A stretch of 64,000 nucleotides of DNA, taken from the NCBI GenBank assembly GCA_965153355.1, contig OZ231126.1:18662001-18726000 (forward strand), given 5' to 3'. This DNA is from Flaccisagitta enflata. Lineage: Eukaryota. Position numbers and translations under genes: made by a program. The first letter of the stretch is position 1. Each line of letters starts with the position of its first letter. Under the pieces are notes generated by a model, which was not told where the DNA came from, ran no database searches, and saw only the letters and a list, made by a program, of their open reading frames with translations. Shown piece by piece: positions 616 to 57,245 of this stretch.

Positions 616-16612
<15,997 letters not shown>

Positions 16613-19766: not shown

Positions 19767-22700
19767 TCACGAAACTTCATCCATTTTGGTTTTGCCCTTA
19801 GTTGACCTCAAGGCAGCTTTGAGCGTTTCAGTCTCTTTTGTTACCCGGGCCAGTTCTTTGGACAGTTCATCCAGTTGCTTTTGTCGCTCCCTTGAGTGGA
19901 AGATAAAATTTACGATTTCATTTTTTGTATGCTGGCATTTTCGTCAATCTCTTACCACTCTATGTACGAGGTACGTGGGAAGCATCTGCTCATAGTTCGG
20001 GAGTTACTACCGAGATTTTTCATCCATGGTCTTTTCCAATTGACACTTCAGTAACTCCAGTTTTTCGTCTCTGGAACTCAATTCTCTTTGGTGTTCTTGC
20101 TTGATCGAGGCCAACTCCTGGTTAAAAGAAAAAAGAAATAAATGAAGAGAAGGGCAGTGACTTTAGATCAATTTTCTCATGTTTCCCTTTGGAAGTTTAC
20201 GATTTTTTCTGATTTCCATTTGGTTTTCGACCGAACATACTTTTTGATGCGCGAGGAACATATCATCGACCCTCTGCACTCTCCGTGCTAGTTTTTCTTT
20301 GAGCGACTCAATTTCCGTCTGGGCGCTCTCATACGCCTTTTCCATGGCATTGTACCCGGCTGTCTGTGGAAGTAAGAAAATGATTGACGCTCATGGTTTT
20401 CATCACGCATTGAGACACTGGCTAACACTTAAATCAAATTGGCTTATCCTTGATCTGTCAAACATTTACCAGTTCTTCAATACGTTTGTTAGCAGCCCTC
20501 AATTCCTCGTCCTTTTCTTGTATGGTGGCCTTCAGTTCCAAATTTTGCTTTTCTATGGACGCTTTGAACTTTTTCCACGTGTTCTCCCTTTCCTTGGCAT
20601 CTCTAAGTTGCAATTCACAGAAGCTGTGTAGATCTATGGGGAAAACCAAAGGGTTATTGTCACCAGTTAGTCAATCGCCTTTTTCATCCCATGTGTCAAA
20701 AGTTAGGTACCAGAACAAGAGCGAGGGATGCTCAATAAGCAATGAGAGAATACATTATGAATTGCTGTTATAGTTTCTGGCTATGATTAATGGTTTATCA
20801 TTAACCTTCTGTATGAGACGCATTTGATCCAGTTTCTACTAAGCGAACGTGAATGGTTGGTTTCTTCTCCTCGCGGATTGGAGGTGTTGGAACCCTCATC
20901 GCAAGTCCCTCCAATTCAAAGTCTGAAGAGGAATTTTGGATTCCGTTTAATTATTTTGAGCTTCAACGATATGTATTTAGATCGCTTGTGGCCAAAACAA
21001 GGCCAACACCTTACAGTCGCGTGCGGTTGTTTAGACCATAAGATCAAAGGACCAAAAGACTAAAACACTAAATGTAAAATGACTTAGAATGACTTAAAAT
21101 GTCAAAATTTGAAATAATGAAAAAAAATGACTAGTCATGACATAAAATGACTTAAAATGACTTAGAATGGCTTAAAATGACGTAGAATAGCTTGAAATTA
21201 CGTAAAACTTTGAAAAATACAAAGCGTTACGGATGGACGGACCGACAGATGGACAGAGCGGGTCATGGAGTCGCGTGCACTTACAAACTTATATACTGAA
21301 AAACCTGAATCCAAGTCGGAAATTGTGACAGGGGGAAGTTTGAGTCTGCTCTGCTTTTGACGTTCTCCTCTCGATGACTGACTCTGCCGTCGCAAATTAT
21401 CTCGATTGGCCGTGTTGGGAGCCCCGATCGACGCCGAATGAGACCCGAGGCGCCGAACAACCTAAAAGTTTGGTGAGCTTGTCAATTTCAAGTTCCACCA
21501 TGGTTGAGAATTATGATCTTTAAAGCGATGATCGCTATTTTTGGCTGAAATTTGGTATGGAGTCTCTAAATGGAAGGCCTCAACATATGTATATGATTTA
21601 TATGCATTTGAGCATGCTAACCAGCCAAACCGACCTACCAGCCAACCGGCCCAAAAGTGAAAAACTTGCATAACTTTGGCATTTTTCAACTAATTTGGTT
21701 GAAACTTGGTATTGGGTCTCTAAATGGAAGCCTCAACATATGCGCACTATTTATCCTGTCAAACCAGCCTACCACCCAACCAGCCTACCGGCCTAAAAGT
21801 GAAAAACGTGCATAACTTTGGCATTTTTCAACCGATTTGGTTGAAATTTGGTATGGAGTCTCTAAATGGAAGGACTCAACATGTGTATGTGATTTATATG
21901 CATTCGAGCATGCTAACCAGCCAAACCGACCTACCACTCAACCAGCCAACCGGCCCAAAAGTGAAAAACTTACTTAACTTTGTCATTTTTCAACTAATTT
22001 GGTTGAAACTTGGTATGGGGTCTCTAAATGGAAGAACTCAACATATGCGCACTATTTATCCTGTCAAACCAGCCTACCACCCAACCAGCCTACCAACCAA
22101 AAAGTGATAAATGTGCATATCTTTGGCGTTTTTCAACCAATTTGGTTGAAATTTGGTATGGAGTCTCTAAATGGAAGGACTCAACACATGTATGTGATTT
22201 ATTTATGTTTGAGCATGCTAACCGGCCAAACCAACCTACCACCCAACCAGCTTACCGGCCTAAAAGTAAAAACTTACATAAATTGGACATTTTTCAACCA
22301 AATGGGTTGAAACTTGGTATGGAGTCTCTAAATGGAAGAACTCAACATACGCACACTATTTATCTAAACCAGCCTACCAACCAACCACCCTACTAGCCTA
22401 AAAGTGAAAAACGTGCATAACTTTGTCATTTTTCAACGGATTTGCATGAAACTTTGTATGGCGGCTCTAAATGTAAAGACTTATAGTTTTGGGCGAACTT
22501 ACAGGGTTAGCGATCTTTTGGTCATAGCGATCTTACGGAATTGGTGATCTTTAACCCCCTTCCGTCGCGGACCCAGATACTGTTCAGATTTTTCTATCAC
22601 AAGTAAGAACGCCTCTTTCTCCCCCTTCCCCCCAAAAAAGACTGGAATGACGACGGAAAGCAAGTATTTTTCAAATCGCCAGCTGAATACAGCAGAATTA

Positions 22701-23048: not shown

Positions 23049-23339
23049 CTGGACATCGTCCAAACTCTTGCTTAAGCTAAGATAAAGCCAGCCTGTTATT
23101 ACTTGACGCTATCATTCCATCTTATACCCCTGGCCTGGGTTATAGCCTCTGGCTTGGTATCATAGCCTAGCAACTGATCCTTTTTGGCAAGGAATGGATA
23201 TAATTGATTTTGGGTGAATGTTGATCTCCAGATGAGCTTTTCTTGTAAGTTGTAAGGGGCCTGTAAGTTAACGATTTTGTTCTGATTTTGTCAATAAGTG
23301 GAAGTTTAACGTGCTATTGAAGCCTGTGATCCAGAAAAC

Positions 23340-23505
23340 TGCCAACAAAACGACAACTTACCGCGCGCATGCGCTATGATCTCCACTTCCAACCTCCCTC
23401 AAACAGATCCTCAATCTTCAAAAATTACCTTGGCCAATCAATGTGACGCGGCAAGTGTCATTAACTGTTGTGATCATAAACTTTGAATGAAAAAAATTGA
23501 CAGAA
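23340..23505. promoter_or_regulatory. Probable bidirectional promoter of the coiled-coil gene and VAP, with an NRF1/Ewg-type palindrome GCGCATGCGC and a CCAAT box
   Basis: A minus-strand GTAAGT donor at 23361 lies ~145 bp from the VAP ATG at 23506. GCGCATGCGC at 23365-23374; ggCCAATca at ~23432-23440. Confidence 0.5.
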
Positions 23506-26500
23506 ATGGCGAAGCAGGATCAAGTCATTATCTTGGAACCCAGTGCTGAATTACGATTTAGAGGTATGTTCAGAAACAATAGATTAAACCCGGGGGCCAA
23601 TTAGTCAATGTGACCCAAGGGCGTTTCTGCCATTGAGTTATCGCTGAGGGTTAATATTTGACTTTGGAGCTTAAATCTGGGGGTTCTCTCCATGATCTGG
23701 AATCTCTAGGGCGCTAAGGGTAAGTTAGTTTCCCTCAAAATCTTGGTTCAGGGGGCAAGTATGATAAATTTATGTGATGGCCTCAAAATCAATCTCATGA
23801 CAATCGTTCATTCGAAAATCTAGTCTAGGAGGTAGGGGTGAGGCTGAAAATGGGTCCTAACCGCTATAGCGCACCCACTTTTAAGGCATACCCGCCGCGA
23901 AGAAGTCGCTGTATCATCAGACATTTTAATGATTTTATTATATTTTTATATTTACAGTAAGGCCGCCTCCCCAAAGGCATAGTCGCCTATAAGTCGATAT
24001 GCCATCAGACATTTTATCGTCATTTCTATACATGGCAATGACGCAGCTTCCCTTTAAGGCATGGTTTTGTCTAGGCCTTAGCGTGCGCGCCATAGCGTCA
24101 TCCTTTATCACTGGTCATTTTTCATGTGACCCGTTCTAGCCCTAATTGACTCCTTTCATCGTCCTTCCGATTGCTTTATTTTATCACTCTTCTCTTCCTT
24201 ACAAGGTCCATTCACCGAAGTCGTCACGGCCTGTTTGACATTGACCAACCCGACAGAAAAGAAAATATGTTTCAAGGTAAGATTAAAAGCAGATAGCGGA
24301 AAAAGACGAAATTCGTTATTTTGACTTGTTGACAGGCGTGTATAAAGTTGAGCATTCCCCCCCCCCCGGGTTTGGAGATGGGGAAGAAAACCTAAGGGTT
24401 GAAGGAAGAAAAAAACAATTTTAGAAGATTTAACACTTTTGACAGTGCCGAAAGAGTATTTGACACTTCTGACAATATTTACTTAAACTCTATGGGGTAG
24501 AAAATCTAACAATTTTTCAACTGGGTGGGGAAGGAAATCAAAGACCAGGGAGGAAAGAAATCAAAAGCGGCTCAACTTTACTATACATCCCGGCTTTTTG
24601 ACTTGAGCTAGTGGTACGCCTCAAAGACGAAATTTCAGCTTTTTAGATGCGTCCTTCACCCTGATCAGGATATGGTAATTGAATCGCTTATAGCCTTGAT
24701 GCCATAAAAATGGAAGTCTTTGTTTGTTGTTTTTATTGACAAAAATTCGAAGAAAATATTTTTTGCAATTTTTTATATGCTTTTCAAGTAATTGAGTGTT
24801 CATTTCAGGTCTTGGTTGCAAAGTAAATCATCCTACTGCCCCAATCTTTTTGATTTAATATAGGGTAAAAGTAAGCGCATTTTTGCGCCATTTTCCTGGA
24901 AGTCTAAAAACTGTCTTTTTGAGTCTATTCTGTTTTCTAATGCTTTTGTTTTAACTTATACATGAGCGTCAAAACCTGGAACTAAATCATAGATTGTAAA
25001 ATAATTCAACTTTACTTATTTTCTTTCAAAAACAATAGTTCAAAGCCATAAATGAGTCTATTACCTAAAACCATATTAATGTGGAAAGGGTGCCTTGCAT
25101 CTGTATAAGTGGGTGTGTTCTTGGGTACAAAAGGAAAATTTTAAGGTTTTCTCTTCATATCTTCATATCTTCATCTCTTTGTATCTTTATATTCTTTATC
25201 TCAAGAGGACGCATCTCAATGATTGGGAATCTCGGAAAAAATGAATGATTCTCTGCACGATTTTGTTTTTCTCTCCGAATCCTCCGCCAGAGCGAATTTG
25301 ATTCAAATAGCTTCGGGCCGTAATACATAAAACCCAGCCAACCCTTAGCCGTAAAGCTAACCCTGTCCCTAACCCTAACTCTAAAACTATATCCAACTCT
25401 AACCCTAACCCTAAACCCACCCCTAACCCTAATTTAAAGAACCGCTTAAAAAGTCTTAAAAACAAAAGATCACAGATGATCGTACAATTGTACCGGAATC
25501 TCTTGGCCTTGTTCTAAGGGTCGAGAGGATCTTATCACTATAGCTGTATCAAATATTTTAAAAAGAACTTCCCTTACTGGCAAGTGTCACGCTTCGGCAG
25601 CAAGCAAGGGTGCCCGACTCTCCAACATCTTAAAGAGTTACCAGGCTTGAGCTATGGCTTTGAACTATGAATCAATGGTTTGATGTCATCCCTAATAGTC
25701 AGGTGTATATTGTCAAACCTATTATTGAGACACTCGTGACCCCTAGGGGGCCCTTAATTAGGGTCAAATGGTCAAATTTGGCTTGTCTCCTGCTTGTCTC
25801 CACATGAAAAGTGCAAGCAGAAGCAATCAAAAAATGTCTAAAGGGGCCATATCATGACTCCTTATCATTTATCATCAATCACTTGAAACATACAAAAAAT
25901 TTGTTTGAGCTCCGTTGACAATAAGTTCCTTAAAAACGGTTTTCTAGCGATCAGTACACCCACTCTATTTTTGAGCAAAATTTAACTCAGATCACAGTAT
26001 ATTGATTATTATTTTTTAAAACTTAACTTTACTTCATTGTTAAGCATATCATGTTTGTTTGTCTGAAAGACAACTACTTGAAGGGCATATTTCCCAAATT
26101 TCATGTTTCCAAGTGGCTCCAAAGCGGCTCAATTGCATTTTTTCTAGAGCGTATCAATTCGCGCACACCCCCAGATTTGTTCCTAACGCATACCTAACGC
26201 TTAAGATATGCCACTATGGCGTGAAAACGAAACAATTTACACAAAATCTGATCACACCACGTGAAAGAGCGTGAAATTTTGAAACTACACTAAAAATTTC
26301 AAGTCTTAACTACCAGACGTTTGGTCACAATGAAATTTTACATTTTGTTGGTCCTGAAGTGTGAACAGAATTGATACGCTCATCGACGGCTCATCGTAGT
26401 TAATTCTTTTTTGCCACACAGCGCTCACAATCATGCGCGATGCTTTTGTGTCTTAATTTGATAAAATTTCTTAAAACTAAAATTGGCATATCTCAGGAAC

Positions 26501-29500
26501 TGTTTGAGCTAGCCCATTGAAATTTTGCATGGTTGGTACCTAGACCAAGAGGGTCTTTTGCTTAAATTCTGATGCGACCTACAGAATGTCAAGCAGTCCA
26601 ACCAGACCAACCAGCCTACCAGATGAAAAAATGAAAAAATGGCATAACTTCTAAAGTAATTGTCCGATTTGGTTGAAATTTTTCATGAAGCTTCCTTTAA
26701 AGATTCCTCGTCACTGGCATAAAAAAGAGCTTGGGGAAAAAATATTTTCTTCCGACAGCCCACCCAGCCAGAAATGGTACTTATAGAGATTTTTTTAAAA
26801 ACTAAAAAAATTCAAAAAAATTTCAGAAACATGATCTTACATGTTTGCTTGAACCTTATCCATAAGATTTTCGCTGTCATATTGATTTCTTAGTTGTATT
26901 TAGCTAAATTGTCTAGTAATAAAATTGCCAACGATATCTATTTAAGCCTAATTTGCATGAAAAATGAGCTTACTTAAGAAAATCCAAGTATGGATTCATA
27001 TGTAAGAATAGGTAAGCTACATGATGATGTATGGTTTTGTTCAATATTCAAACATGTAAATTTGATGAATTTCATCCCGTCCATGTCGGGTTAGCATGAC
27101 ACAAGCCTACTCCGAGTAGTAGTCTGCTAACCTTTTTTTCGAGCAGAAATAGAACATTAGGAAATCAGCAAGCAATACTACTGAATGTTTTATCTCAAGA
27201 TTTGCTTTGTCGAAAAAGGGGAAAATAACCACTCCTGGCGTAAGCCGCGATATATACCGCTGTGACTGTTAGTAGGGCGTTGGGATGGTAACCACATCCT
27301 TATCAGGACTCCCGGTTTACAAAATATTCCACTCTCTACGATACCGATTTCATCCTCTTCTTGTAAATGACTAACTGCTTTTGGGAAAATAATGATCTCT
27401 CTCCTCTTCCTCCTCTCTCTCTTCTCCTCCTCTCCCTCCCCCCCCCCTCTTATCTCTCTCTCTCTTTCTCTCTCTCGCTCACTCACTCACTCACTCACTC
27501 ACTCACTCACTTTCTCTCTCCCTCCTGTTTGTATGATTAGTTCATCACATGAAGGGACATGTTGAAATCAATGATTCGGTTACAGAATCGAAAGAAAAAA
27601 GAAAAATGTAGTCAAGATGTGACCAATGACTTTCGGGGTTGCTATGGCCATCTTATGCGCCGCTGTTTATATCTGGAACATCTTGAACGTGTTGTTTAAC
27701 ATCTGTTTAATCATAATATCTACATATATCTTCATATTTTCAAGGTCAAAACTACCGCGCCCAAGCGGTACTGCGTTCGGCCAAATTCTGGCGTTGTCGA
27801 TCCCAAAGCCTCCGTTGAGGTGGCTGTTATGTTACAACCCTTCGAATATGATCCAGCAGAGAAGAATAAACACAAGTTCATGGTGCAAACAATGTACGCA
27901 CCTGATGGACCATACGACGCAGATACTCTGGTACGTTGAAATGAATAAACTCTGCAAGCTACACTATTCGGTTTTATTCAGTGCATGAAATTTTGACTGA
28001 CAAATTCACATTGTTTTGCGACATTGACCAAGAAATGTTGGTCACGGGATACCGGATTTTTCCTGTTTTTAGCGCCCCTCTTTTTTTTCCTGGAAATAAA
28101 TCGATTTTTACTTTTGGATTTTTTGGTTATTGTTAAAAACAGAGGAGAATTTGATTTTGGTTTATTTTCATTAGTTTCAAAAGATTCAACTAGAATTCAT
28201 TGAAACAATTTAAAGAATATAGAGAGTTTTTATTTGCAAGGGGGATTTAATGTAATGTGACTATCTTTGTTTACAATTTCAAAAGAAAACACGACATGTA
28301 TCTACCCCTCCAGCAACCACATGTCTCGCGTTGGTCAGCTCTATGACGATTACGACATACGCACTCCCTGACTCCTTTAGTTAGGTTGTTCGCCGCCTTC
28401 TTTCTCTGTTGTCAATAATCTGACCCAGTATTTGTGTTTCAGTGGAAAGACGCCAAGTCCGAAGCACTGATGGACTCCAAGTTGAAATGCGTTTTCGAAT
28501 TACCTGCCGCGGAACAAGTAGTTGTTGCGGCAACCGCAAAGGAAGATGCTTCAAGCAATGAGGTACGCCTTAATCTGCCAGATTTAATCTCTCATCTTTT
28601 ACGTATAGCATGATATAGAATCTTCGTCTTTCGTCTTGGTCTGAGCTCTAGTGCCTCCTATCTCTAGATCCTTAGCGGCAGTTCATCCACGGACGACGCG
28701 GCGAGTTGAGACTTGATACACTGTACACTTATACAGTAATTAGTAATCCAGTAAGAGCTTGCCAGTACTAATGCCAGGAAATTTGATATCTAAAAGACCA
28801 ATATAATCAAATAAACAAAGATTGTAGTGCCTTGATAACCTGGGTTTGGACAACGTTATGTTTAGTAGCGATCTGAATGCTCCTAAATACTGTTAAACAT
28901 TGAGGTCACTCCAGCAATGTATAGAAAGTAAAATTAATCATTAGTGCATCTTTGACCAGGCTTCTGCCCGCGCATGCGCAGTGTCATACGATCAACATCG
29001 TCATTCCTATGAAATAAAAACAAATCTTGATTCTTTCGCCCCCATGCAACAATTCATGAATCCTAAAAAATGATAATGAATAAAATAAAAACATCGAATA
29101 TTCATAAATCAAACTAAAAGAAATCGAGCCGGCGTCGTGGTAAATCTGGCACTCGTAATCATCGTCGACGGCGCACACCTGATGCCGATGACGAGGATGA
29201 TGACACCACGGTAAAATAAGTATATTCGGTTCTTATGCAATTGGTAGAAGATTTTATCCTTTCGGGAGAGTGCTGAACATTCCTGAATGCATTTTACAGA
29301 CGTCGAGAGAGACTCCGACGACGGCAAAAATGGCCGAAGAATCGGAAAATGCGAGTTTTGCCGACACGTCCTCTTCCTCCTCATATTCCACCGAAATCGA
29401 AACTCTGAAATTGACCGTCTCTCATCTGAGCGAAAGCCTCGCCGAAACCAAGATCAAAGTCGCCGACATGGAGGAACATAAAATAGGATTAGAGGGTGAA

Positions 29501-32500
29501 ATCCGCGATCTCAAAATAACCTTGGAAGAGAAAGAGACGCGGTTGCTATTGATCAAGAACAAAGCCGACGATCACGATCGCCTCGCGCAATTGCTCGTCG
29601 AATCCGAAGAACGCGAGCGAGCGCTCGAAGACGGCATGAAAATCATGCAAATGGGCAAAGCCGAAGCGGAGAAATTGGTAAGGAACTGCGAAGCTAAGAT
29701 CGACAATGCCAAGGCCACAGAAGACGCGCTGAGGGTCAAAGATGACGAAATCGCCGTCTTAAGACAAAATAAAAGGGAATTGGAAGACAAAGTGTGCGAG
29801 GTCACCGTTAAGAATGAGGAAAAAGACCAAAGCTTACAAAGCGGAATGGCGACGATTGAAGATCTACGCGCGAGAATATCATCCAAGGAAAACGAATTGT
29901 CGGTCCTGGAAGACGAACTTAACATGGCGCGGGCGGCCTCGAAACAAATGAAAACCGAAAAGGATAAGCTGGAAGCTGAGTCCAGCTCATTGAGGGACGC
30001 GGTGTCTTCTCAAGAAAGCAACGCGTCACGTCTGATGGATGATCTGAAAAAAGAAACGAACAAGTCTAATTGCCTCACGAATGAGATAGAACAGCTAAGA
30101 ACCTCGAAATCTTGCCTCCAGTCAGATTTGGATAACGCGAGAAAGAAATCCGACAAGGCGGAGACCGAAAGCGATCAAAGGTTACGAGAGTTGACAGCTG
30201 TCAAAAAGCAACTTGACGATTTGAAGATCGATCACGACCTGTCGATGCAACGAAAAGAATCGACCATCGACGAGTTGAAAAAAGAAATCGCGAACGGGAT
30301 CATCTCGTCGGATCAATCGATCCAGCTGCAATTGATCGCGTGTAAAGAAGAGATCGATTCGTTATCGAATGAACGAGAACGTTTGCAGAAGCGTTTGGCA
30401 GATGAGGAGCTGAAGAATGTCGGACGAGCGAAGGAGTTGGAAACTTACAAAAAATTATCGGAGGACGCGAGTGGAGAATACCGAGCTCTGCTTGCGAATA
30501 GGGAAGAGGAAGCTTCGAAATCCCTCGAGGACAAGGACCAGGAAATTCAATCCCTGATGAAAACGCTGGAAGAGGAGCGGCGCTCACGCCGTGACATTGC
30601 CACGCGGCTTGAGGGAGCTGAGCAGCAAGAGCTGACGCTGCAACGAGATAAGGCTGATTTGGCAGAGCTATTGGAAACAAAATTAAACGAATTGAAAGCA
30701 GCCAAGGACGAGGCAACGTTATTGGCTTCCACTAAAGAAGAGGTACTGAGACAGAAAGACCTCGTCGTTGCCGAATGTGATGCGGCGAAAGCTTCATTGA
30801 CCATTTGCGAAGAAAATCGGAGGAAGGAAAACGAAGAATTGGCCTCGGAGGTAGAAAGATTAAGACGCCTCGTGAATGAAAAGGAAGGTCTCATTGGGGA
30901 TTTAATTGAGAAAAGCGAGATTGATGCCAGTCGGAAAAACGCGCTGCTTAATGAAATAGAGGAATTGAAAGAGGCTGTCAATGAAAAAGAATCATCTCTC
31001 GCGCAGATCGCGGAGGAACGGAATAGTGTCGAGGACGAGTCTCAGAAAAGCAAGGTAAGAATGGATAAGCTGAAAACGAAATTAGAAAAATACGTAAAAG
31101 AAAATGATGACTACATTCAAACTCTTCATCATCTTAAGTTGGACGCCGATCGGCTGATTAAAGAATTAGAATCGGAGAAAATCAAGTCGGCGAAGAACGA
31201 AGAGAAGATGCGCAAATTGACGGCCGATCACGCCGAGCTGCTCCGCAAGAGCGAAGACGCCGATGCAAAGTTGAAAAGAGAGATGGGAAAAGTGGAATCC
31301 CTCACCGCCACAAACGAGAGATTAAAGGCGGAGAAATTGGCGGTCTCTAAAACTTACGAGGAGAAAATGGGCGGGTTGTCGGTGGAGAAAAACAAAATGG
31401 CAGATTTGGTGATGAGAAAGGACGACGACATGGTAAAGAGAGAACGTGAGTTTGAAGACGAGAAGGCGAGAATACTGAAGACGTTGGAGGAGGCGGATTC
31501 GTTGAACAACGAGCAAGAGTTATCAATCCTCGCCAAAAACGGCGAGATCGGCGAATTGACGAGCAAGATCGAATCGTTAGAAGCGCAGAATAAATTTCAT
31601 AAAGATGAGATTTCCCAATTGAGAGATAAAAAGTTGAGCGAATCCAAATACTTGGCCGCGAAGATGAGTGAAACAGACTCGTTGAACACAAAGGTAAAAG
31701 ATCTGACGAGCGAGTTAAAGAGCGTTGGAAATCAGTTTGAGTTGAGTAAAAAACTGGTCACAGAATGTCAGAAAGACCGGCAGAATTTTATCGCCGAGGC
31801 TGACAAGCTTCGGGCTAAAATAAATTTACAGGTTGAAGAGAAAGAAAAAATGGAGAGTACGCTAAAGGTGATGATCTTTTGTGGAGATGAATTCGCTTGG
31901 CCTATAACCGGGCATGCCCTTTTTTTACATGGTCATTGTTTTGTTAGCTTAGGGTAACCGTTGTTGTCCCCTACGTTATCGAGGCTTCGGGAATGGTCTT
32001 CATTCTTTGTTTTTCAAAATTATTAACATTCAGTTTTGGCCATTTTATAGACCATTCAACAAGTCTCGCCCACTCCTCCGCCCGCGGGAGAGGCAAGTGG
32101 CAAATATTAATTTGAGTGACTTTTTAGTTAACATTGCCGTTATCGCGTCGGTTACCGTTTTGCTTTCGTATCTAGTCCAAATCAGCATGATTTGCCGAGC
32201 GCTTCGTTAGAGCATACATGACTTAGCGCCGTCAACTGTCCTGGATGCTAATATCCTAGTCTTGCTAATTATTTACCACCTTTGTGTGCTTTAAGTTGCC
32301 ATCCTTTCGTGGTTCGATGTACTTCGATATGAACGCGCAGGTACAATGTCCTTTGCACTGGAAAATGACAGTTTGGGAAAAGCTCGCACTGTAGCTTAAA
32401 TGGTTATTTGAATCCCGACCTATACGGTTGTATTTAGATACAGGATGGAGGGTTGACTGATGGTAGCGTCATAGAGTAGTGTGCATGTGCCCGCGCTCCC

Positions 32501-33571
32501 GAGTAAAGATGCGATGGCTTGTCAGCAGCTTTGGGAGACTAATTTCGCTCACGTCTGTCAAATGGATAATAATGTAATGGTTCTCATACTTGGCATTCTG
32601 TAATATTGTACAAACACAGCTCCATAGACTCCATTTCTTGGCCCATCCGTTTGTCTGCCTGACTGTCTCATGGTTATTTTATTGCTCGCTAGTCAAATGC
32701 ATGGATGAAATTTTTCTCTTTCCTGTCCTTCATCCCTGTACCATAACCTGGCTAAAAGAACAACCTGAACGCTGAGTATCAACTGTACCAGGAACCAATT
32801 TCCCCATGTCTATCAACTAACAAAGTATATCTTTGCATACTCGGTGCTCTTGGGTTTCCGGTTAACAACTTTTTTTGCTGTGAGATGATGAAGTGGCGAT
32901 GTGGTTTTTAGATGCTCAGACGTATCAACCTATTTTCATTTTCTTGTTCTTTATTATCACATTTCTTAACAATTACTAACGTGTAATTTCGTCTTTGAAC
33001 AGAACAAGCTTGAAGTGGAGCTTCAGAAAGTCCTCGAAGACAAGAAGCGCATCATGTCTGAAAGCTCCGAGAAAGATGCTGAAATCATGCGACTGAAGGT
33101 GAGAGCTGATAATAGGGAAGGTGGTCTAAGAATTTACAATGGTTGTAGGCGTTGTTGTATTTTTAGGTGCGACAAGGCACCTCTATAACTGGCTCTGTCC
33201 GTCGGTCGGTTGTTTGGTCTGTCGGTCTGTCGTTAACGCGTTTGTTCGACGATCCACACGTCGCACCCTTTTGGGCTACTTGGCCTTGTGATTAAGTGAA
33301 CGATCGGCTTAGTTTGGCAGTATGTCAATGAGTCAAATTTGTATGTATCCCTTCCTCATCCAACAAGGACGAGGTGAACCGATTGGAGGAAACCGAGACG
33401 AAATTGCGCCGGAGATTCCTCGCCGAAACGACCAGCTCGGATCCTTCCCCTTCTTCCTCCCCCGTCACACCGACTCCTTCCGCGGGAGGCGTGATTCCCC
33501 AGGCACCGCTCCTAATTTATATCATAGTCTCAATCATTATCGGACTCGTTCTGGGGAAAGTGTTCTTGTAA
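23506..33571 (+). CDS. VAP: VAMP-associated protein (VAPA/B, Vap33 family); core exons 23506-23563, 24206-24276, 27745-27930, 28443-28562, 32051-32092, 33003-33098, 33368-33571 (258 aa), plus candidate cassette exons 29121-29210 and 29300-31867
   Basis: MSP domain [27 protein letters not shown]...[19 protein letters not shown]...[18 protein letters not shown]...[12 protein letters not shown]. Short coiled coil and a C-terminal tail anchor ([20 protein letters not shown]) with GxxxG. Confidence 0.93.
25585..27110. mobile_element. Degenerate ~1.5-kb non-autonomous repeat; related copy in opposite orientation at ~42860-44377
   Basis: Shared segments in inverted orientation: ttagggtcaaatggtcaaatttggc vs gccaatttgacctaa, and aaaaaatggcataacttctaaagtaattgtccgatttggttgaaattt vs aaatttcagccaaatcggacaaatattttagaagttatgccg. 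Boundaries approximate. Confidence 0.45.
29300..31867 (+). CDS. Giant 856-codon coiled-coil exon inside the VAP gene
   Basis: Uninterrupted ORF (track 29270-31957), E/K/L-rich heptads, non-repetitive at DNA level. Acceptor ttttacag| at 29299 and donor AAG|gtgatg at 31867, both phase 0. Confidence 0.8.
33160..33290 (+). mobile_element. Short HINE-like element (same family as 15878-16014)
   Basis: tttttaggtgcgacaaggcacctctataactggc...gtcgcacc...acttggccttg. Confidence 0.6.
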
Positions 33572-33785
33572 AAATGCCGGGCGCTCCACTGCCGCGTTGG
33601 TGAGAGGTCTCCCAAAATAATCGGTGATAAGAAGACATCGTGACCCGTGATTGCTTTGATGTATGCGGTTGCCCATTTTTTCTTGTGAACGGAAATAATT
33701 AGTTGAATAATAAGCTTTTTTTCCTCTTTTACATCTCTTTCCAATGAGTGGTGAATTTGTGGGTTATGTCAATTTGTCCTTATTA

Positions 33786-34554
33786 CAGTATGTTTTTTTT
33801 CGTTTGTAACATTACAGGACGGCACTAATCAGCCCTCAGGCCAGCGATTGACTTCTGCAACGGCTCATTTTGTAGGTAATAAGTGAGCATTTAATGATTT
33901 GTGACTTCTTGGACTTTTTTACATGAATCTAATCCTCTAAACACATAAGGGACAGACTGGGTCATAACCAAACTATCAAATTAACAAAATTTCCCACTTT
34001 AACGGTCTTTCTTTAAATTGCTCTCATTTCTGAACGGTTTGAGACTCTGATCCCAGATTGGTCTCAAATGGAAGGTATTTTGAAGTAGTTTTTGGGATTT
34101 TTTGAATTCAAGTATATTGTCGATATCCTGAGTAAGTTTTTTTAGTTGGGAGTCAATTCTTGAGCTAAATCTTGTTAAAGGAGCTAATTCCTTGCAATCT
34201 TGGTGTAATTTTTTCATCAAAAAGTGCTTCTTTCTTTATTTTTTTAAAAACTGGTCTTAATTTGCATTAATTTGGGACCAACCTGGCACTTTTTGTTCAA
34301 TCCGTTCAGATAATAGAGCCACTTGAAGAAGGAATGTTCCTTTAAAAACCTGAAATAATGGCCTTTTTCGCCTGTTTTGTCTAATGCTTCCTCGCCTATG
34401 GCAGAGGTCAGGTTTTTGTCAAAAAGTCCAAGACTTGTAAAATCATAAAATGCTCACTTATTATCTACAAATTGAGCCATTGTCGAAGTGGTTTGCATGC
34501 CAGGGGGCTGAGCAATGTCGTCGTGTAATGTTACAAACGAAAAAAAACATACTG
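33786..34554. mobile_element. Tc1/mariner-type MITE, TA TSD, ~140-bp imperfect TIRs, just 3' of the VAP stop
   Basis: ta|CAGTATGTTTTTTTTCGTTTGTAACATTACA ... TGTAATGTTACAAACGAAAAAAAACATACTG|ta. Confidence 0.85.
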
Positions 34555-36257
34555 TATTCTTGCCATAAGAAAGGGGGTGCATATTTCAATTTTGACACGC
34601 GTCGGGTTGCTATGGGAGATTAATCATATTTAACGATTCATGTATAAGCTTTTTTCAAGATCAAATTTATGCCGTAAATCTTATTTCTTTTTTTTATTTC
34701 TTGCGCTTTTAGTTTCCGTTTCGTTACCCCATTGTTATCGTCATTGCTCGTGACGAAGAAAAATTGTGACTTTTCGTGGGGGTTAAGAAAAAAATTTCGC
34801 GCTCAGCATACTTCTTATAAATCCATTATCTATTCCAGTCTTGTCATGACACTTTCTGCCCGTGCTATCTCGATGTATATCGTGTTTGACTCGACGTGTG
34901 TCAGGATTGTTCTATGATGGACAAATTGGCACACTTTGACGATACATTCTTGCTCGGTTTAAAGATTTAAAAAAGATTGTTCTCTAATAAAGCTTTCATG
35001 AATTTCTTGAAAGATTTTGTAACACAAAAGATCAAGATCGAAAACGAATGTTGTAATAATGTAACGTTGCCATATGTTGTGTTCTACCCACTTTAAAGTA
35101 GTCTGCTTAATATTATGTGGCTCTGCCTTTGTGCAAACTGCGCTGGATTCATTATTTTTTCTCCTCACGGAGTAGTAGTCTACTTGACATGTTTACATAC
35201 CTAGTTCTCAACTTTATTCTTTTCATCCCTTTCGGAATGATGAGCAGGGTTAATGGGTCCCTCCCCACTTCCCGTCCCGTTTCCTGTAACGAGATTGTAG
35301 GATATTTTCTTTCCTATTGAAAAAATAGTTTTATGTGCGGTGCGATCCCTTTTACTTAAAACTGTGAGACGTTGGATGTTGATTTGTACAGATGGCCGTT
35401 AGTAAGAGTTGAATCTTTTACGTCCCCATTTGAATATGCGTAAAGATTACTAATCGTAAGAAATACAGTCTTAATTATTATTCACGGTATATACACTCTG
35501 TATTGATTCGCCTTTTATCATTGAGTCTATGAACGTTCTGGTCTTTTCTTAACATCACGCGTAGGTTGATAACGTTAAATCTTTGGATGTTGTGGGTGTT
35601 GCGACTATACGATCATCTTTTACGCTCACTGACAGCCAATTTATCAGCCTGCCATAGCGAAATTAGCTAAGATACAGGTCCCTCTTCTATTCTAATGAAC
35701 GATGATTTGAAGAAAACCTATGCGCCAAAATCGGCTGCTGTCTCAAAAGTAAACGCACGCGCGGTGTCAGACGCTGCAGCGTTACCGCTTCGTCAGCCTT
35801 CTCAATTGTCTATCGTTTCTAGATGCAGACCCCTCCGCCCAGCGATATCTAGAATTAACTCTCTCTCGAGACCGGTAAGCGCCACTTAGTCAACGATATC
35901 CGGTATCGTTGGAGCATCGGGGGATCTCGACAAACTCTCTTACTCGACAACATTAAGGAATTCTCATCGGAGAGAAACTGTTTTCGCTTAATCTACACTC
36001 AACAGAGTTAAGAAAAAGAAGAGGGAACAGAAACAAAAAGATTTGACACTCACACTCGAAACCTGCATCGAAACAGCACTCGAATCCCGGCGAGCTCTGA
36101 CTCAGCTCCTCGACTTAGAAAACATTCAGCGACGACGACTCATTTCCTTATAAGGAAATAGCGGAGCCTTCTGTTGAGAAAAGTTTTGAGCTGTATACAT
36201 GTAAAGGAGTAAAAGTCTCTCTTCTGTTTCATTCGCGCTCTAAATCTACTGTCGAGG

Positions 36258-36563: not shown

Positions 36564-39500
36564 TGTGATGTTCAAGAGTGGGAGCGAGTCAGAATGGAAA
36601 TGATGATGGTCAAGAGGGGAAGGAGCGGAAATGGCGATAATGGTGGGTGATGGGAGTGATAATGGTAATGATGATATCATGATGAAGGGAATTGAGAATG
36701 GCGATGATGATGGAGAGGAAGGCGAGAGAATGGTAAGGATGATTATGAGGGGAAAGAAGCCAGAACAGCGCTGATAAGGATGGGGAAGGAGTGAGAATGG
36801 CGAAAATGATAATGAGGAAGAGGGGAACGGAGTGAGAATGGCGATAATGAAGAAGAGGGGAACGGAGTGAGAATGGCGATAATGATAATGAAGAAGAGGG
36901 GAACGGAGTGAGAATGGCGATAATGATAATGAGGAAGAGGGGAAGGAGTGACAATGGCGATAATGATGAGGAAGAGGGGGAAGGAGTGAGAATGGCGATA
37001 AGGAAAAGGGGGAAGGAGTGAGAATGGGGATGATGATGAAGAGGGGGGGAAGGAAAGAGAATGGGGGTGATGATGACGAGGGGGGAAGGAGTGAGAATGG
37101 CGATAATGATGATGAGGAAGAGGGGAAGGAGTGACAATGGGGATTATGATGAGGAAGAGGGGGAAGGAATGAGAATGGCGATGATGATGAGAAATAGGGG
37201 AAGGAGTGAGAATGGCGATAATGATAATGAGGAAGAGGGGGAAGGAGTGAGAATGATGATAATGAAGAAGAGGGGGAAGGAGAGAGGATGATGAGGAAGA
37301 GGGGGACGGAGTGAGAATGGCGATAATGATCATGAAGAGGGGAAGGAGTGAGAATGGCGATAATGATGATGAGGAAGAGGGGGAAGGAGTGAGAATGGCG
37401 ATAATGATGATGAGGAAGAGGGGGAAGGAGTGAGAATGGCGATAATGATGATGAGGAAGAGGGGGAAGGAGTGACAATGGCGATAATGATGATGAGGAAG
37501 AGGGGGAAGGAGAGAGAATGGTGATAAGGATGATGAGGAAGAGGGGGAGGAATGAGAATGGCGATAATGATGAAGAGGGGGAAGGAGTGAGAATGGTGAT
37601 AAAGATGAGGAAGAAGGGGAAGGAGTGAGAATGGCGATGAGGATGATGAGGAAGAGGGGGAAGGAATGAGGATGGCGATAATGATAATGAGGAAGAGGGG
37701 AAGGAGTGAGAATGGTGATAATGATGATGAGGAAGAGGGGAAGGAGTGAGAATGGCGATAATGATGAGGGAGAGGGGGAATTAGTGAGAATTATGATGAT
37801 GATGAGGAAGAGGGGGAAGGAGTGAGAATGGCGATAATGATGATGAGGAAGAGGGGAAGGAGTGACAATGGCGATAATGATGAGGAAGAGGGGGAAGGAG
37901 TGACAATGGCGATGATGATGATGAGGAAGAGGGGGAAGGAGTGATAATGGCGATAATGATGAGGAAGAGGGGGAAGGAGTGACAATGGCGATGATGATGA
38001 TGAGGAAGAGGGGGAAGGAGTGAGAATGGCGATAATGATGAGGAAGAGGGGGAAGGAGTGATAATGGCGATGAAGATGAGGAAGACGGGGAAGGAGTGAG
38101 GATGGCGATGATGAGGGAGGAGAAGAAATGGCAATGATGAAAAGGAGGAATGAGGACTGAAGTAGGGGGGATGAGGATAAGTGATAAGATGATGAAGGAA
38201 GAGGGGGAAGGAGTGAGAATGGCGATAATGATGATGAGGAAGAGGGGGAAGGAGTGAGAATGGCGATAATGATGATGAGGAAGAGGGGGAAGGAGTGAGA
38301 ATGGCGATAATGATGATGAGGAAGAGGGGGAAGGAGTGAGAATGGCGATAATGATGATGAGGAAGAGGGGGAAGGAGTGAGAATGGCGATAATGATGATG
38401 AGGAAGAGGGGGATGGAGTGAGAATGGCGATGATGAGGAAGAGGGGGAAGGAGTGGGAATGGCGATTGTAATGAGGAAGAGGGGGAAGGAGTGAAAATGA
38501 CGATAATGATGAGGAAGAGGGGGAAGGAGTAAGAATGGCGAAAAGGATGATGAGGAAGAGGGGGAAGGAGTGAGAATGGCGAAAAGGATGATGAGGAAGA
38601 GGGGGGAAGGAGTGAGAATGGCGATGATGATAATTATGAGGAAGAGGGGGGAAGGAGTGAGAATGGCAATGATGATAATTATGAGGAAGAGGGGGGAAGG
38701 AGTGAGAATGGCGATGATGATGATTATGAGGAAGGGGGGGGGAAGGAGTGAGAATGGCGATAATGATGATGAGGAAGAGGGGGGAACGAGTGAGAATGGC
38801 GATAATGATGATGTGGAAGAGGGGGAAGAAGTGAGAATGGTGATTATGATAATGAGGATCAGGGGGAAGGAGTGAGAATGGCGATGATGATAATGAACAG
38901 GGGGAAGGAGTGAGAATGGCGATGATGATAATGAACAGGGGGAAGGAGTGAGAATTGCGATAATGATGATGATGAGGAAAAGGGGGAAGGAGTGAGAATG
39001 GCGATGATGAGGAAGAGGGGGAAGGAGTGATAATGGCGATGAAGATGAGGAAGAGGGGGAAGGAGTGAGGATGGCGATGATGAGGGAGAGGGGGAAGGAG
39101 TGAGGATGGCGATGATGAGGGAGGAGAAGAAATGGCAATGATGAAAAGAGAGGAGGAATGAGGACTGAAGGAATGGCGGTTAGGATGACCGGGGATAAGT
39201 GATGCCAAGATGTTTCGAAGGGAAAGGATCTAGTCCTTCGAAGTGAGAAAGCTCAAGATAAGGGTAGGGACCGAGAAATGGTAAGATGAAAAGCCTTAGC
39301 ATGACAAAAAAAGTATGGCAAGAGAAAGAAGGACGGGATTACCAAGCATGTTAGCCTGTGTGGAGAAAAGCCGCGGGAATGGTCTGAGAATCGAGAGGAG
39401 TAAACTTTTGATCGGAGGAAAGGAAAACAAGGCCGGATAAACGGCCAATTCCAGTCGCGGACGGGTGGGCAGGGGCTGAAACGCGCGTTTTCACACTTTC

Positions 39501-52840: not shown

Positions 52841-55800
52841 TTTCCTTCTTCTTTCCTTCTTTCTTCCTTCCTTCTTTCCTTCCTTCTTTCTTTTTTCTTT
52901 TTCTTTTTTGTCCTTAACAGTTTTTGTCGGTGACTATGACAGTAGCAGTGACTATGAGTGTATGTGTAGTCTGTCTGTCTGTCTGTGTGTCTGTCTGTTT
53001 GTCTGATTAAAACCCTTGATATTTTTGGAACCAGACTTCAGAATTTTATGAAACTTTGCTGGTGTTGTTTTTAGGTCAATAGGAGCTTGTGCACCAATTT
53101 TCAAAAAAATTCATTAACTTTTACTACCCTTTGCCTATTATTTTTGTAGTAATATTTAGCTGGGACTTAAGCGTTTTACATAGGTAGAGGGTAGTAAAGG
53201 TTTATGAATTTTTTTTTAATTTGGTATACAAGTAGAGGGTAGTAAATAAACAACCCCTGCAAAATTCGAATTAAATCTGAAGTCTGGTTTATGAGATATT
53301 AGTTTATTTATGTAGTAGTATGTTGCTAGGACTTAGGCAATTTACATAGGCAAAGGGTAGTAAAGGTATGTGAATTTTTTTCTAATTTGATGAGCATGTA
53401 GAGGGTAGTAAATAAATAAGCCCTGCAAAATTCGAATTAAATCTGAAGTCTGGTTTATGAGATATTAGCTTATTTATATAGTAATATGTTACTATGACTT
53501 AGGCAGTTTTGTATAGCAAAGGGTAGCAAAGTTATGTGAATTCTTTTTAATTTGGTATACAAGTAAAGGATATTAATTGAAGTGCCCCTGCAAAATTCGA
53601 ATTAAATCTGAAGTCTGGTTTATAAGATATTAGCTTATTAATGTAGTAATATATTACTAGGACTTTAGCAATTTCTGTAGAGGATTGGAGTTGGAATTCT
53701 TTTACTATCTCATTTATTACATTCTGATTTTTTTTTTTTCTTTAGGTTTGCCATCATGGATTTCAAGATTCATCTTCAACTACTGTCACCATCTTCAACT
53801 ACTGTCACCATCTTCAACTACTGTCACCATCTTCAACTACTGTCACCATCTTCAACTACTGTCACCATCTTCAACTACTGTCACCATCTTCAACTACTGT
53901 CACCATCTTCAACTACTGTCACCATCTTCAACTACTGTCATCATCTTCAACTACTGTCATCATCTTCAACTACTGTCATCATCTTCAACTACTGTCATCA
54001 TCTTCAACTACTGTCATCATCTTCAACTACTGTCATCATCTTCAACTACTGTCATCATCTTCAACTACTGTCATCATCTTCAACTACTGTCATCATCTTC
54101 AACTACTGTCATCATCTTCAACTACTGTCATCATCTTCAACTGTCATCATCTTTCAACCATCATCATCTTCAACTACTGTCATCATCTTCAACTACTGTC
54201 ATCATCTTCAACTACTGTCATCATCTTCAACTACTGTCATCATCTTCAACTACTGTCATCATCTTCAACTACTGTCATCATCTTCAACTACTGTCATCAT
54301 CTTCAACTTTGAAAAAAAATTTTGAAAATTTCAAAAAAAAAAATTTTTTTTGAAAATTTTTTTTTGAATTTTTTTTTTTTTTTTTTTGAAATTTTTTTCG
54401 AAAATTTTTTATATTTTTTTTCTTATTATATATTTTTTTTGTCGTGTATCTTCTCGAGTTGCGTTTACGCGACGAGAAAGCTTCAATAATTGCAGTCCCA
54501 GTCAAGGATATTAATTGAACAGCCCCTGCAAAATTCGAATATAATCTGAAGTCTTGTTTATAAGATATTAGCTTATTAATGTAATTATATGTTACTAAAA
54601 CTTTGGCGATTTATATAGAAGATTGGAGTTCATAAATTTTTTTACTTGCACATTCATTATGTTCTGATTTCTTTTCTTTAGGTGTGCTATCATGGATATC
54701 AAGATTCATCTTCATCTGCTGTCATCATCATCCACTACTGTCATCATCATCCACTACTGTCATCATCATCGACTACTGTCATCATCATCCACTACTGTCA
54801 TCATCATCCACTACTGTCATCATCATCAACTACTGTCATCATCATCAACTACTGTCATCATCATCAACTACTGTCATCATCATCAACTACTGTCATCATC
54901 ATCAACTACTGTCATCATCATCAACTACTGTCATCATCATCAACTACTGTCATCATCATCAACTACTGTCATCATCATCAACTACTGTCATCATCATCCA
55001 CTACTGTCATCATCATCCACTACTGTCATCATCATCCACTACTGTCATCATCATCCACTACTGTCATCATCATCCACTACTGTCATCATCATCCACTACT
55101 GTCATCATCATCCACTACTGTCATCATCATCCACTACTGTCATCATCATCCACTACTGTCATCATCATCCACTACTGTCATCATCATCCACTACTGTCAT
55201 CATCATCAACAATCAATCAATCAAGCTTGCCCTTATCGGGTCATCCACTGGAAGTATTTGCTGGCCTACCTGGGCTTGTTTGAGTCTCAAAAGTAATATG
55301 TTCTGTTTCAGATAGATCGGCTCAAAGATCCCAACATTTTTGTCCCCGACGAAAAGTTTTCGTCGGTGACTATGTGATGGACCTGATCGTGTAGTCTGTT
55401 CGTTTGTTTGGCGTTTAAAACCTTCTCATATTTTTTGAACCAGACTTCAGAAGTTCATGAAACTTTACCAGTGTTATTTTTATGTCAATGGTAGCTTGTG
55501 TACCAATTTTCAGAAAAATTCATTAACTTTTACTACCCTTTGCCTATTATTTTTGTAGTAATATTTTACTGGACTTAGGCAATTTACATAAGTAAAGGGT
55601 AGTAAACCTATGTGAATTTTTTTGAAATTTGGTATACAAGTAAAGGGTACTAAATAAACAACCCCTGCAAAATTCGACTTAAATCTGAAGTCTGGTTTAT
55701 GAGATATTAGCTTATTTATGTAGTAGTATGTTGCTAGGACTTAGGCAATTTACATAGGCAAAGGATAGTAAAGGTATGTGAATTTTTTTTTTTTACACAG

Positions 55801-57245
55801 TAGTAGGGTAGTAAATAAACAACGCCTGCAAAATTCAAATTAAATCTGAAGTCTGTTTTATGAGATATTAGCTTATTAATGTAGTAATATGTTACTATGA
55901 CTTAAGCAGTTTTATAGGCAAAGGGTAGTAAAGTTATGTGAATTCTTTTTTAATTTGGTATACAAGTAAACGATATTAATTGAACTGCCCCTGCAAAATT
56001 CGAATTAAATCTGAAGTCTGGTTTATAAGATATTAGCTTTTTAATGTAGTAATATGTTACCAGGACTCAGGCGATTTATATAGAAGATTGGAGTTGATGA
56101 ATTCTTTTACTTGCTCATTTATTACATTCTGATTTTTCTTTAGGTTTGCCATCATGGATTTCAAGATTCATCTTCAACTACTGGCATCATCTTCAACTAC
56201 TGTCATCATCTTCAACTACTGCCATCATCTTCAACTACTGTCATCATCTTCAACTACTGTCATCATCTTCAACTACTGTCATCATCTTCAACTACTGTCA
56301 TCATCTTCAACTACTGTCATCATCTTCAACTACTGTCATCATCTTCAACTACTGTCATCATCTTCAACTACTGTCATCATCTTCAACTACTGTCATCATC
56401 TTCAACTACTGTCATCATCTTCAACTACTGTCATCTTCAACTACTGTCATCATCTTCAACTACTGTCATCATCTTCAACTACTGTCATCATCTTCAACTA
56501 CTGTCATCATCTTCAACTACTGTCATCATCTTCAACTACTGTCATCATCTTCAACTACTGTCATCATCTTCAACTACTGTCATCATCTTCAACTACTGTC
56601 ATCATCTTCAACTACTGTCATCATCTTCAACTACTGTCATCATCTTCAACTACTGTCATCATCCTTGACTACTAAATTTTTGAAAAAATTTTTGAAAATT
56701 TAAAAAAAAATTTTTTTTTGAAAATTTTTCAAAATTTTTTTTAAAATTTAAAAAAAAAAATTTGAAAAATTTTTTTTAAATTTTTAAAAATTTTTAAATT
56801 TTTTTGAAAATTTTTAAAATTTTTAAAAATTTTTGAAAATTTAATTTTTTTTTTTTCTTTAAATTTTTTTGAATATTTTTTTCTTAGATTTTTGTTGTTA
56901 TTATCATTCACTGTTGTCATCATCATCATCCACTATTGTTGTCATTATTAAGATTTGTCATCATTAAAACAATATTGAATATTTTTTTTCTTTTTTTCTT
57001 GAAATTGCTGTCTTGTCGTGTATCTCATCGAGTTGCGTTTACGCAACGAGAAAGCTTCAAAAATTGCAGTCCCCAGTCGGGGACTGTAATTTTGAAGCTT
57101 TTTTCTTTCTTTCTTTTCCTTTCTTGTCAATGTCTCTTTCTTTCCTTCTTTCTTCCTTTCTTTCTTTCCTTATTTCTTTCCGTCTTTTCCTTCCTTGTCA
57201 ATGTCTCTTTCTTTTCTTCCTTCTTTCCTTCTTTCCTTCTTTCCT

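Follow-up and report, generated by a model that had tools for sequence, protein, structure and literature searches.

The 64,000 nucleotide (nt) window analysed here, positions 18,662,001 to 18,726,000 of the forward strand of contig OZ231126.1 of Flaccisagitta enflata (NCBI GenBank assembly GCA_965153355.1), carries a gene that its sequence identifies as a VAP. VAPs are the main endoplasmic reticulum (ER) receptors at membrane contact sites. Between the exons for the MSP domain and those for the tail anchor lies an open frame of 2568 nt, referred to below as the big exon, which the analysis confirms as a real coding exon of VAP that is conserved, is subject to alternative splicing and lies in linker 1. 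A minority of transcripts splice MSP exon 4 to a small exon of 90 nt and from there to the big exon, and most skip the whole block. The full account favoured here, in which an alternative VAP exon is spliced onward to the membrane anchor and supplies a long-reach rod, is on balance the probable one. The exons at the centre of this account are as follows.

28443..28562, forward strand: VAP exon 4, the end of the MSP domain and the start of linker 1; branch point of the alternative splicing.
29121..29210, forward strand: 90 nt exon "5a", alternative, phase 0, 30 residues; joints 28560>29119 (cut +2) and 29209>29299 (cut +1).
29300..31867, forward strand: big exon, alternative, 2568 nt, 856 residues; recognized by its open frame, RNA contigs and relatives.

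The splicing evidence comes from contigs of marine metatranscriptomes, three runs of one study (X1, X2 and X3), which were compared with positions 23200-34600. The RNA matches the window at 95-100%. Three alternative routes leave the end of exon 4.

Joint 28562>33003: depth 56.7 in X1 and 21.6 in X2; major form of 244 amino acids, about 87% of X1 depth.
Joint 28562>32051, then 32092>33003 (a GC-AG intron): depth 4.36 in X1; form of 258 amino acids, about 7%.
Joints 28562>29121 and 29210>29300: depth 4.1 in X1; exon 5a followed by the big exon, about 6%.

The two joints that skip the big exon are dominant in the RNA, which bears out an original prediction, made from the sequence alone, of a skippable VAP exon. 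In X2 the joint 28562>33003 lies on one contig of 902 nt that spans exons 3 and 4 and the last exon. Entry into the long form is seen on a single X1 contig of 342 nt, in which the complete 29121-29210 is flanked by 26 nt of exon 4 and 225 nt of the big exon; it extends to 29523 with one mismatch, and both of its introns are of the GT..AG type. The joint 28562>29121, which the prediction had given only as an alternative, is therefore present in RNA and continues through 29210>29300. The contig links exon 4 to the big exon, contrary to an independent nested gene without any splicing to VAP exons. A direct joint 28562>29300, bypassing the 90 nt exon, was not seen in the available contigs. As the contig includes the 90 nt exon, the long products would come to 1130, 1144 or 1145 amino acids and not to the approximately 1114 first proposed. 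All of these splice combinations are without stops.

The depths of the three routes are mutually consistent. The constitutive joints (exons 1>2, 2>3 and 3>4) have a depth of 65.1 in X1, and the three alternative joints from 28562 sum to 65.2. Such an agreement is expected at a branch in a de Bruijn graph, and it is because of this branch that each alternative contig carries only 24-26 nt of exon 4.

Additional contigs cover parts of the big exon itself. In X1 these are 29299-29523, 29514-29724, 29697-29866, 30050-30385 and 31502-31735, with depths of 2.8-4.5, and in X2 they are 30128-30302 and 31438-31656, with depths of 3.0-3.3. X3 contributes one mismatch-free contig of 167 nt at 29803-29969, at a depth of 2, which is the minimum depth. 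The bin 28915-29295 has a depth of 0.98, which the 90 nt exon at 4.1 accounts for alone; likewise the depth of 0.48 in the bin 31963-32343 is that of a 42 nt cassette exon alone, and the bin 32344-32724 has a depth of 0. As the small exons fully account for the bin depths, the introns that flank the big exon are silent while the exon carries contigs. Of the 14 differences listed between RNA and window inside the big exon, 7 are synonymous (21-36% expected), an excess that fits coding constraint but is weak evidence for it.

The big exon is part of a stop-to-stop open frame of 917 codons at 29204-31957 (forward strand), the longest in the window, transposon remains aside. Given the local base composition, the probability that a frame of this length arises by chance is about 3e-26. 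Translation of 29300-31867 yields 856 residues and no stop, and the exon is bounded by an acceptor at 29300 (ttttacag/ACG) and a donor at 31867 (AAG/gtgatg), both in phase 0; the original prediction was correct on the extent, the open frame and the phases. The big exon (2568 nt) and exon 5a (90 nt) are both in phase 0, and the reading frame is kept when they are included. No tandem repeats were found inside the big exon at a TRF score of at least 200.

The gene around the big exon was delineated by reading of the sequence together with RNA joints, with MSP exons at 23506-28562 and the tail anchor at 33368-33571 (forward strand). Besides exon 4, its constitutive coding exons are these.

23506..23563, forward strand: VAP coding exon 1, with the ATG and the start of the MSP domain; found by motif scan and by joint 23561>24204 (cut +2, GT..AG).
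24206..24276, forward strand: VAP exon 2, MSP domain; joints 23561>24204 and 24269>27738 (cut +7).
27745..27930, forward strand: VAP exon 3, MSP core; RNA joints.
33003..33098, forward strand: VAP stem exon, constitutive, the native short coiled-coil stem; joints 28560>33001 and 33095>33365.
33368..33571, forward strand: VAP last coding exon, with linker 2, the hydrophobic tail anchor and the stop at 33569-33571; joint 33095>33365 (cut +3).

Joint 23561>24204 has a depth of 65.1 in X1 and 21.6 in X2, and joint 33095>33365 has a depth of 70.6. A heptad-like stem, encoded by 33003-33098, precedes the tail anchor. The last 20 residues of the protein are, judged by eye, hydrophobic and contain G-x-x-x-G, with the stop directly after them. 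In the 3′ untranslated region (UTR), at 33784-34554 (forward strand), contigs of X1 (depth 70.6) and X2 (23.5) skip 771 nt with non-canonical TA..TG ends; the present genome could have an insertion that is missing from the sampled population, or the stretch could be an unusual intron.

Two small cassette exons lie between the big exon and the stem exon.

32051..32092, forward strand: 42 nt cassette, alternative, 14 residues, GC donor; joints 28560>32049 and 32090>33001.
32296..32340, forward strand: 45 nt cassette, alternative, 15 residues, AG and GT splice sites; its product is P0010.

The donor of the 42 nt cassette at 32093-32094 (forward strand) is GC (GAG/gcaagt) in place of GT, and the RNA joint 32092>33003 that uses it has a depth of 4.36. 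The 45 nt cassette had no place in the original prediction and lies outside the coverage of RNA runs X1-X4. Relatives too have small cassettes of the 42 and 45 nt type (P0014 and P0017), and that of P0017 resembles the 45 nt cassette. The peptide encoded by exon 5a is strongly basic in its first part and acidic after that.

When the constitutive exons are joined computationally, they give a protein of 244 amino acids that is letter-for-letter P0011. Addition of 32051-32092 gives 258 amino acids, identical to P0008, and addition of 32296-32340 gives 259 amino acids, identical to P0010. Skipping of the big exon had been predicted to leave a VAP of 258 amino acids. The normal size holds; the 258-residue product is the minor form with the 42 nt cassette, and the major form has 244 residues. 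All three short proteins carry PF00635 (MSP) at 111.3-111.8 bits against a cut-off of 25.9, and exon 3 matches P0008, P0010 and P0011, which are VAPs derived from transcripts, at 100% identity. Among the best 120 of 986 relatives of exon 3, every name that identifies a family is that of a VAP, synaptobrevin-binding or MSP-domain protein, and the remaining names are placeholders (hypothetical or unnamed protein). The named VAPs in this set belong to a brachiopod, bivalves, ticks and others at 74-85% identity, the closest (Lingula, bivalves and ticks) at 79-81%, for example Lingula 81% and Mytilus 80%. By sequence, then, the flanking gene is a VAP gene, and the skipped products of 244, 258 and 259 amino acids are ordinary VAPs.

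The translated big exon is rich in glutamate (16%), lysine (12%) and leucine (12%) and contains 17 glycines and one proline, at residue 6, in 856 residues. Its mean best hydrophobic fraction at heptad positions a and d is 0.52, compared with 0.402 +/- 0.013 in 100 shuffles, by a home-made heptad score and not COILS or MARCOIL. An AlphaFold2 monomer model built from an alignment of five rows places helices at residues 29-172, 183-331, 337-505, 508-734, 738-746 and 749-855, with a mean pLDDT of 78 and a pTM of 0.30. These six helices total about 805 of 856 residues and are separated by five breaks; residues 1-28 form a disordered, acidic and serine-rich lead-in. The helical nature of the segment is thereby established, and the near-continuous coiled coil of the original prediction agrees with both the heptad score and the model. 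Coiled coils rise by about 0.15 nm per residue. About 805 helical residues would at that rise span about 120 nm, a calculated length that assumes a fully extended parallel dimer. As the helices are broken in five places, the rod could also fold back, which would shorten its reach. Searches with the big exon gave four Pfam matches, all below the cut-off, and no match in a PDB sequence search. Its look-alikes in Atlas are generic coiled coils only, fragments of CENP-F, HOOK and GOLGA2 that share 103-125 of 256 features. The big exon was not placed in any family.

The big exon has few relatives. Five matches were found among 1.84 billion representatives, all of them fragments or DNA-type calls. 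P0002 and its cluster mate P0007 are from the same species as the window, P0007 differing at 14 of 846 aligned residues. P0003 is an open homologue of 466 amino acids with 47% identity to the big exon overall, and P0005 and P0006 are short, with 38-44% identity in alignment A1. Taken together, P0003, P0005 and P0006 show 38-47% identity across the alignment and 45-49% over the matched stretches. The fifth match, P0004, is a variant contig of 553 nt. The first 27 residues of P0004 show no relation to the window, and the remainder corresponds to the 3′ end of the big exon together with the beginning of the intron behind it; the contig may be chimeric or may represent a structural variant. A search of JGI metagenome contigs gave 93 pattern matches with the protein query and 597 with alignment A1, from which no big-exon locus was confirmed. 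On these searches the big exon appears to be lineage-restricted.

Conservation within the exon is uneven. One segment stands out.

29384..29719, forward strand: conserved module, exon residues 29-140; 109 residues aligned with P0003, of which 75% are identical.

Residues 141-445 show 36-39% identity to P0003 in alignment A1. In the rod, the module would lie next to the MSP domain, at the end away from the membrane. Conservation also bears on where translation of the segment begins. The methionine of the window at 29330 aligns with a lysine in P0003, and homology continues upstream of it; a Leu-Gln pair, the context of a ..CAG acceptor, stands just before the homologous part in the window, P0003 and P0005. 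An unconserved methionine combined with a shared acceptor context fits an exon internal to a gene and speaks against a gene that starts within the segment itself.

In the favoured account the big exon would leave through its phase 0 donor at 31867 and join 32051, 32296 or 33003. This would yield a VAP of 1130-1145 residues that is tail-anchored and has the MSP domain at the tip of the rod; the rod, probably a dimeric coiled coil, would run on into the dimerising stem of VAP itself. Such a form, when extended, could place the FFAT-binding MSP domain as far as about 120 nm away from the ER membrane, and the five predicted hinges would allow the rod to collapse. As the most economical reading, a golgin-like action is proposed, with long-range capture of FFAT-bearing partners or organelles, spacing, or both. 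The conserved stretch of about 110 residues at the MSP end would be a likely second docking site, specific to this isoform. Because no contig covers the 3′ joint, retention of the membrane anchor, given inclusion of the big exon, is deduced from the frame, the quality of the donor and the absence of a poly(A) signal; on these grounds we consider it likely. The long-range tether function is a plausible proposal. That splicing sets contact-site width, as the original prediction suggested, is a conjecture.

Several observations weigh against this account. The stretch 31736-31962 has no contig in X1-X3, so that the joint out of the big exon (31867>32051, 32296 or 33003) is unobserved. The joint into it comes from a single low-depth contig of one run of one study, with 26 nt on the exon 4 side, and the X2 contigs on the big exon show no joint into it. 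The X3 contig on the big exon occurs in a run with no contig on the constitutive VAP exons, which a purely VAP-linked transcript does not predict; it could possibly be carry-over of DNA or pre-mRNA. Run X4, of raw poly(A) reads, adds nothing to the splicing question, as only two reads matched within 23200-34600, both at a microsatellite. No protein of 470-1498 amino acids matches the big exon at E <= 1e-3 in 5.8 billion clusters, whether the whole exon or residues 19-170 are used as query, none of the best 120 of the 986 exon 3 relatives is longer than 327 amino acids, and the databases searched hold no assembled full-length long form. With regard to structure, a monomer model with a pTM of 0.30 cannot show a parallel extended dimer.

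The uncovered 3′ end leaves room for an alternative last exon, in which the donor at 31867 is unused, translation runs to the stop at 31955-31957 and the product is a soluble protein of about 1,060 amino acids, with an MSP domain and a coiled coil and without an anchor. Such a product could rival ER-bound VAP in binding FFAT partners, or could link these partners to one another in the cytosol. The frame does stay open for 30 codons beyond the donor, and the gene call P0007 reads the same tail. On the other hand, AATAAA and ATTAAA are absent from 31868-33000, the sole one, at 31819, preceding the donor, and the donor is of good quality and shares phase 0 with each of the three acceptors downstream. 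The frames of P0007 and P0004 continue past the donor into intron sequence, and for this reason they look like calls on unspliced DNA, which are uninformative on mRNA. Moreover, P0004 has a frame shift inside the 30-codon tail, and both P0007 and P0004 have a one-codon insertion relative to the window just 3′ of the donor, which suggests that the tail is without coding constraint. A last exon of this kind is thus unlikely.

A nested or internally promoted gene is less probable still. It would be transcribed from a promoter in the intron, start at the in-frame ATG at 29330, 10 codons into the big exon, and encode a coiled coil without an MSP domain, tail-anchored if spliced onward; the joint with exon 4 would be a rare by-product. 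Gene callers do start P0007 at this ATG, and the X3 contig described above is of the kind expected from such a gene. That contig, however, is at the minimum depth, and the contig joined to exon 4 has a depth of 4.1, the same as other contigs on the big exon (2.8-4.5). RNA coverage is absent at 28915-29120 and 29211-29299, where the 5′ UTR of an internally promoted transcript is expected, and the homology that runs upstream of the methionine to the acceptor context speaks in the same direction. The least probable of the alternatives, a very remote one, is that inclusion is splicing noise, that the frame is fortuitous or in decay and that the included form has no function. Inclusion is indeed low (about 6% of X1 depth, with one supporting contig), and the scarcity of homologues in both protein collections would agree with noise. 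Against it, a frame of 856-917 codons cannot persist by chance, the frame is open in a relative at 47% identity (75% over 110 residues), and the sequence combines a clean heptad, a composition suited only to helix and a single proline with a frame that fits every downstream exon. The alternative VAP exon with onward splicing to the anchor is the reading retained below.

The lead-in of the big exon was also considered as a possible FFAT-like binding site for the MSP domain of the same protein. It contains a stretch F-A-D-T/S behind acidic residues, a similar stretch is found in P0003, and Y-S-D-S occurs nearby in P0005. The published FFAT-like pattern (PMC3261905) has no match in P0001, P0003, P0005 and P0007; in the stretch considered, position 3 is alanine or serine. 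With position 3 freed, the homologous place fits the pattern in two of three species, but 465 of 5000 shuffles fit it as well, and the candidate was rejected. A complex prediction of MSP residues 1-130 of A2 with exon residues 1-60 scored 0.31 against a mark of 0.34, in a comparison run without controls, and so speaks neither way on binding.

Other parts of the window contain additional features. At about 3450-11750 (reverse strand) long open frames lie in a block of 50% GC, compared with about 40% in the rest of the window; one frame matches a Pao retrotransposon peptidase (PF05380, 35.6 bits) and another DUF5641 below threshold. The block likely represents remains of a BEL/Pao-type long terminal repeat retrotransposon. 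A purine-rich tandem array at 36782-39118, with a 41 nt unit in 59.7 copies at 82% matches, is the cause of an extreme GC and AT skew at 36-40 kb. Three arrays of a 19 nt unit, about 26-29 copies each at 96-99% matches, are found at 53138-56663; repeat arrays of 165/166 nt precede two of the three, and the region is therefore a higher-order duplicated block. Upstream of the VAP gene there is an SH3-domain exon at 16445-16609 (forward strand; PF00018, 62.6 bits), and several coiled-coil-like open pieces are present at 19767-20670 (reverse strand), one of which was tested and has no Pfam match. These are probably exons of two neighbouring genes.

Compared with canonical VAP-A and VAP-B (the VAP33 and Scs2 family), the short forms share the MSP domain and the C-terminal hydrophobic G-x-x-x-G anchor. 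In the long form, linker 1 would be extended by 886 residues (30 + 856); the best 120 of 986 relatives do not exceed 327 amino acids in total. Its calculated reach of up to about 120 nm is roughly ten times the extension measured for VAP-A, 10 +/- 2 to 17 +/- 2 nm (PMC8187361). Optional exons at this site, between the MSP domain and the stem, have precedents. Human VAP-A has a minor splice form with 45 extra residues in linker 1, predicted to be disordered (PMC10345920), and mouse Vapa has a testis-only cassette exon in linker 1 (PMC3905889). The 42 and 45 nt cassettes described here are of that kind. The vertebrate inserts are small, with disorder predicted for them, whereas the insert formed by the big exon is helical and has 20 times their length. 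No VAP carrying an extended coiled-coil insert was found in the literature, of which coverage was partial, with most subscription papers outside it.

Tail-anchored golgins (giantin, golgin-84 and CASP) and tethers of the EEA1 type are long, hinged coiled-coil rods with a capture module at the far tip. If the 3′ joint exists, the long VAP would have in principle the same architecture as the tail-anchored golgins, a C-terminal anchor, a hinged rod of calculated length and a capture module at the tip. There is no sequence relationship, and here the membrane would be the ER and the capture module the MSP domain. Ankyrin-G and ankyrin-B have neuron-specific giant exons. The NASP-T exon is a giant tissue-specific exon named in PMC3905889. 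As in these genes, one huge optional exon would alter the reach of an adaptor and leave the binding and anchoring modules untouched; the genes and the folds are different. The most far-reaching version, that the lineage evolved a golgin-like VAP with a regulated giant exon, a hinged stalk of about 120 nm, ER capture beyond normal contacts and a second docking site, is doubtful on the present evidence.

How the length and flexibility of a tether relate to the distance between membranes has been addressed by engineered linkers and by the 45-residue VAP-A insert (PMC10345920; PMC8187361). A natural VAP isoform with a stem about 20 times longer would make the tether-length question testable with two products of one gene. 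It would also suggest that some animals use VAP for long-range capture besides close apposition. On the most far-reaching version, the ER could catch or hold partner organelles well beyond the 10-30 nm of normal contact sites, which would be a natural experiment on tether length and contact geometry.

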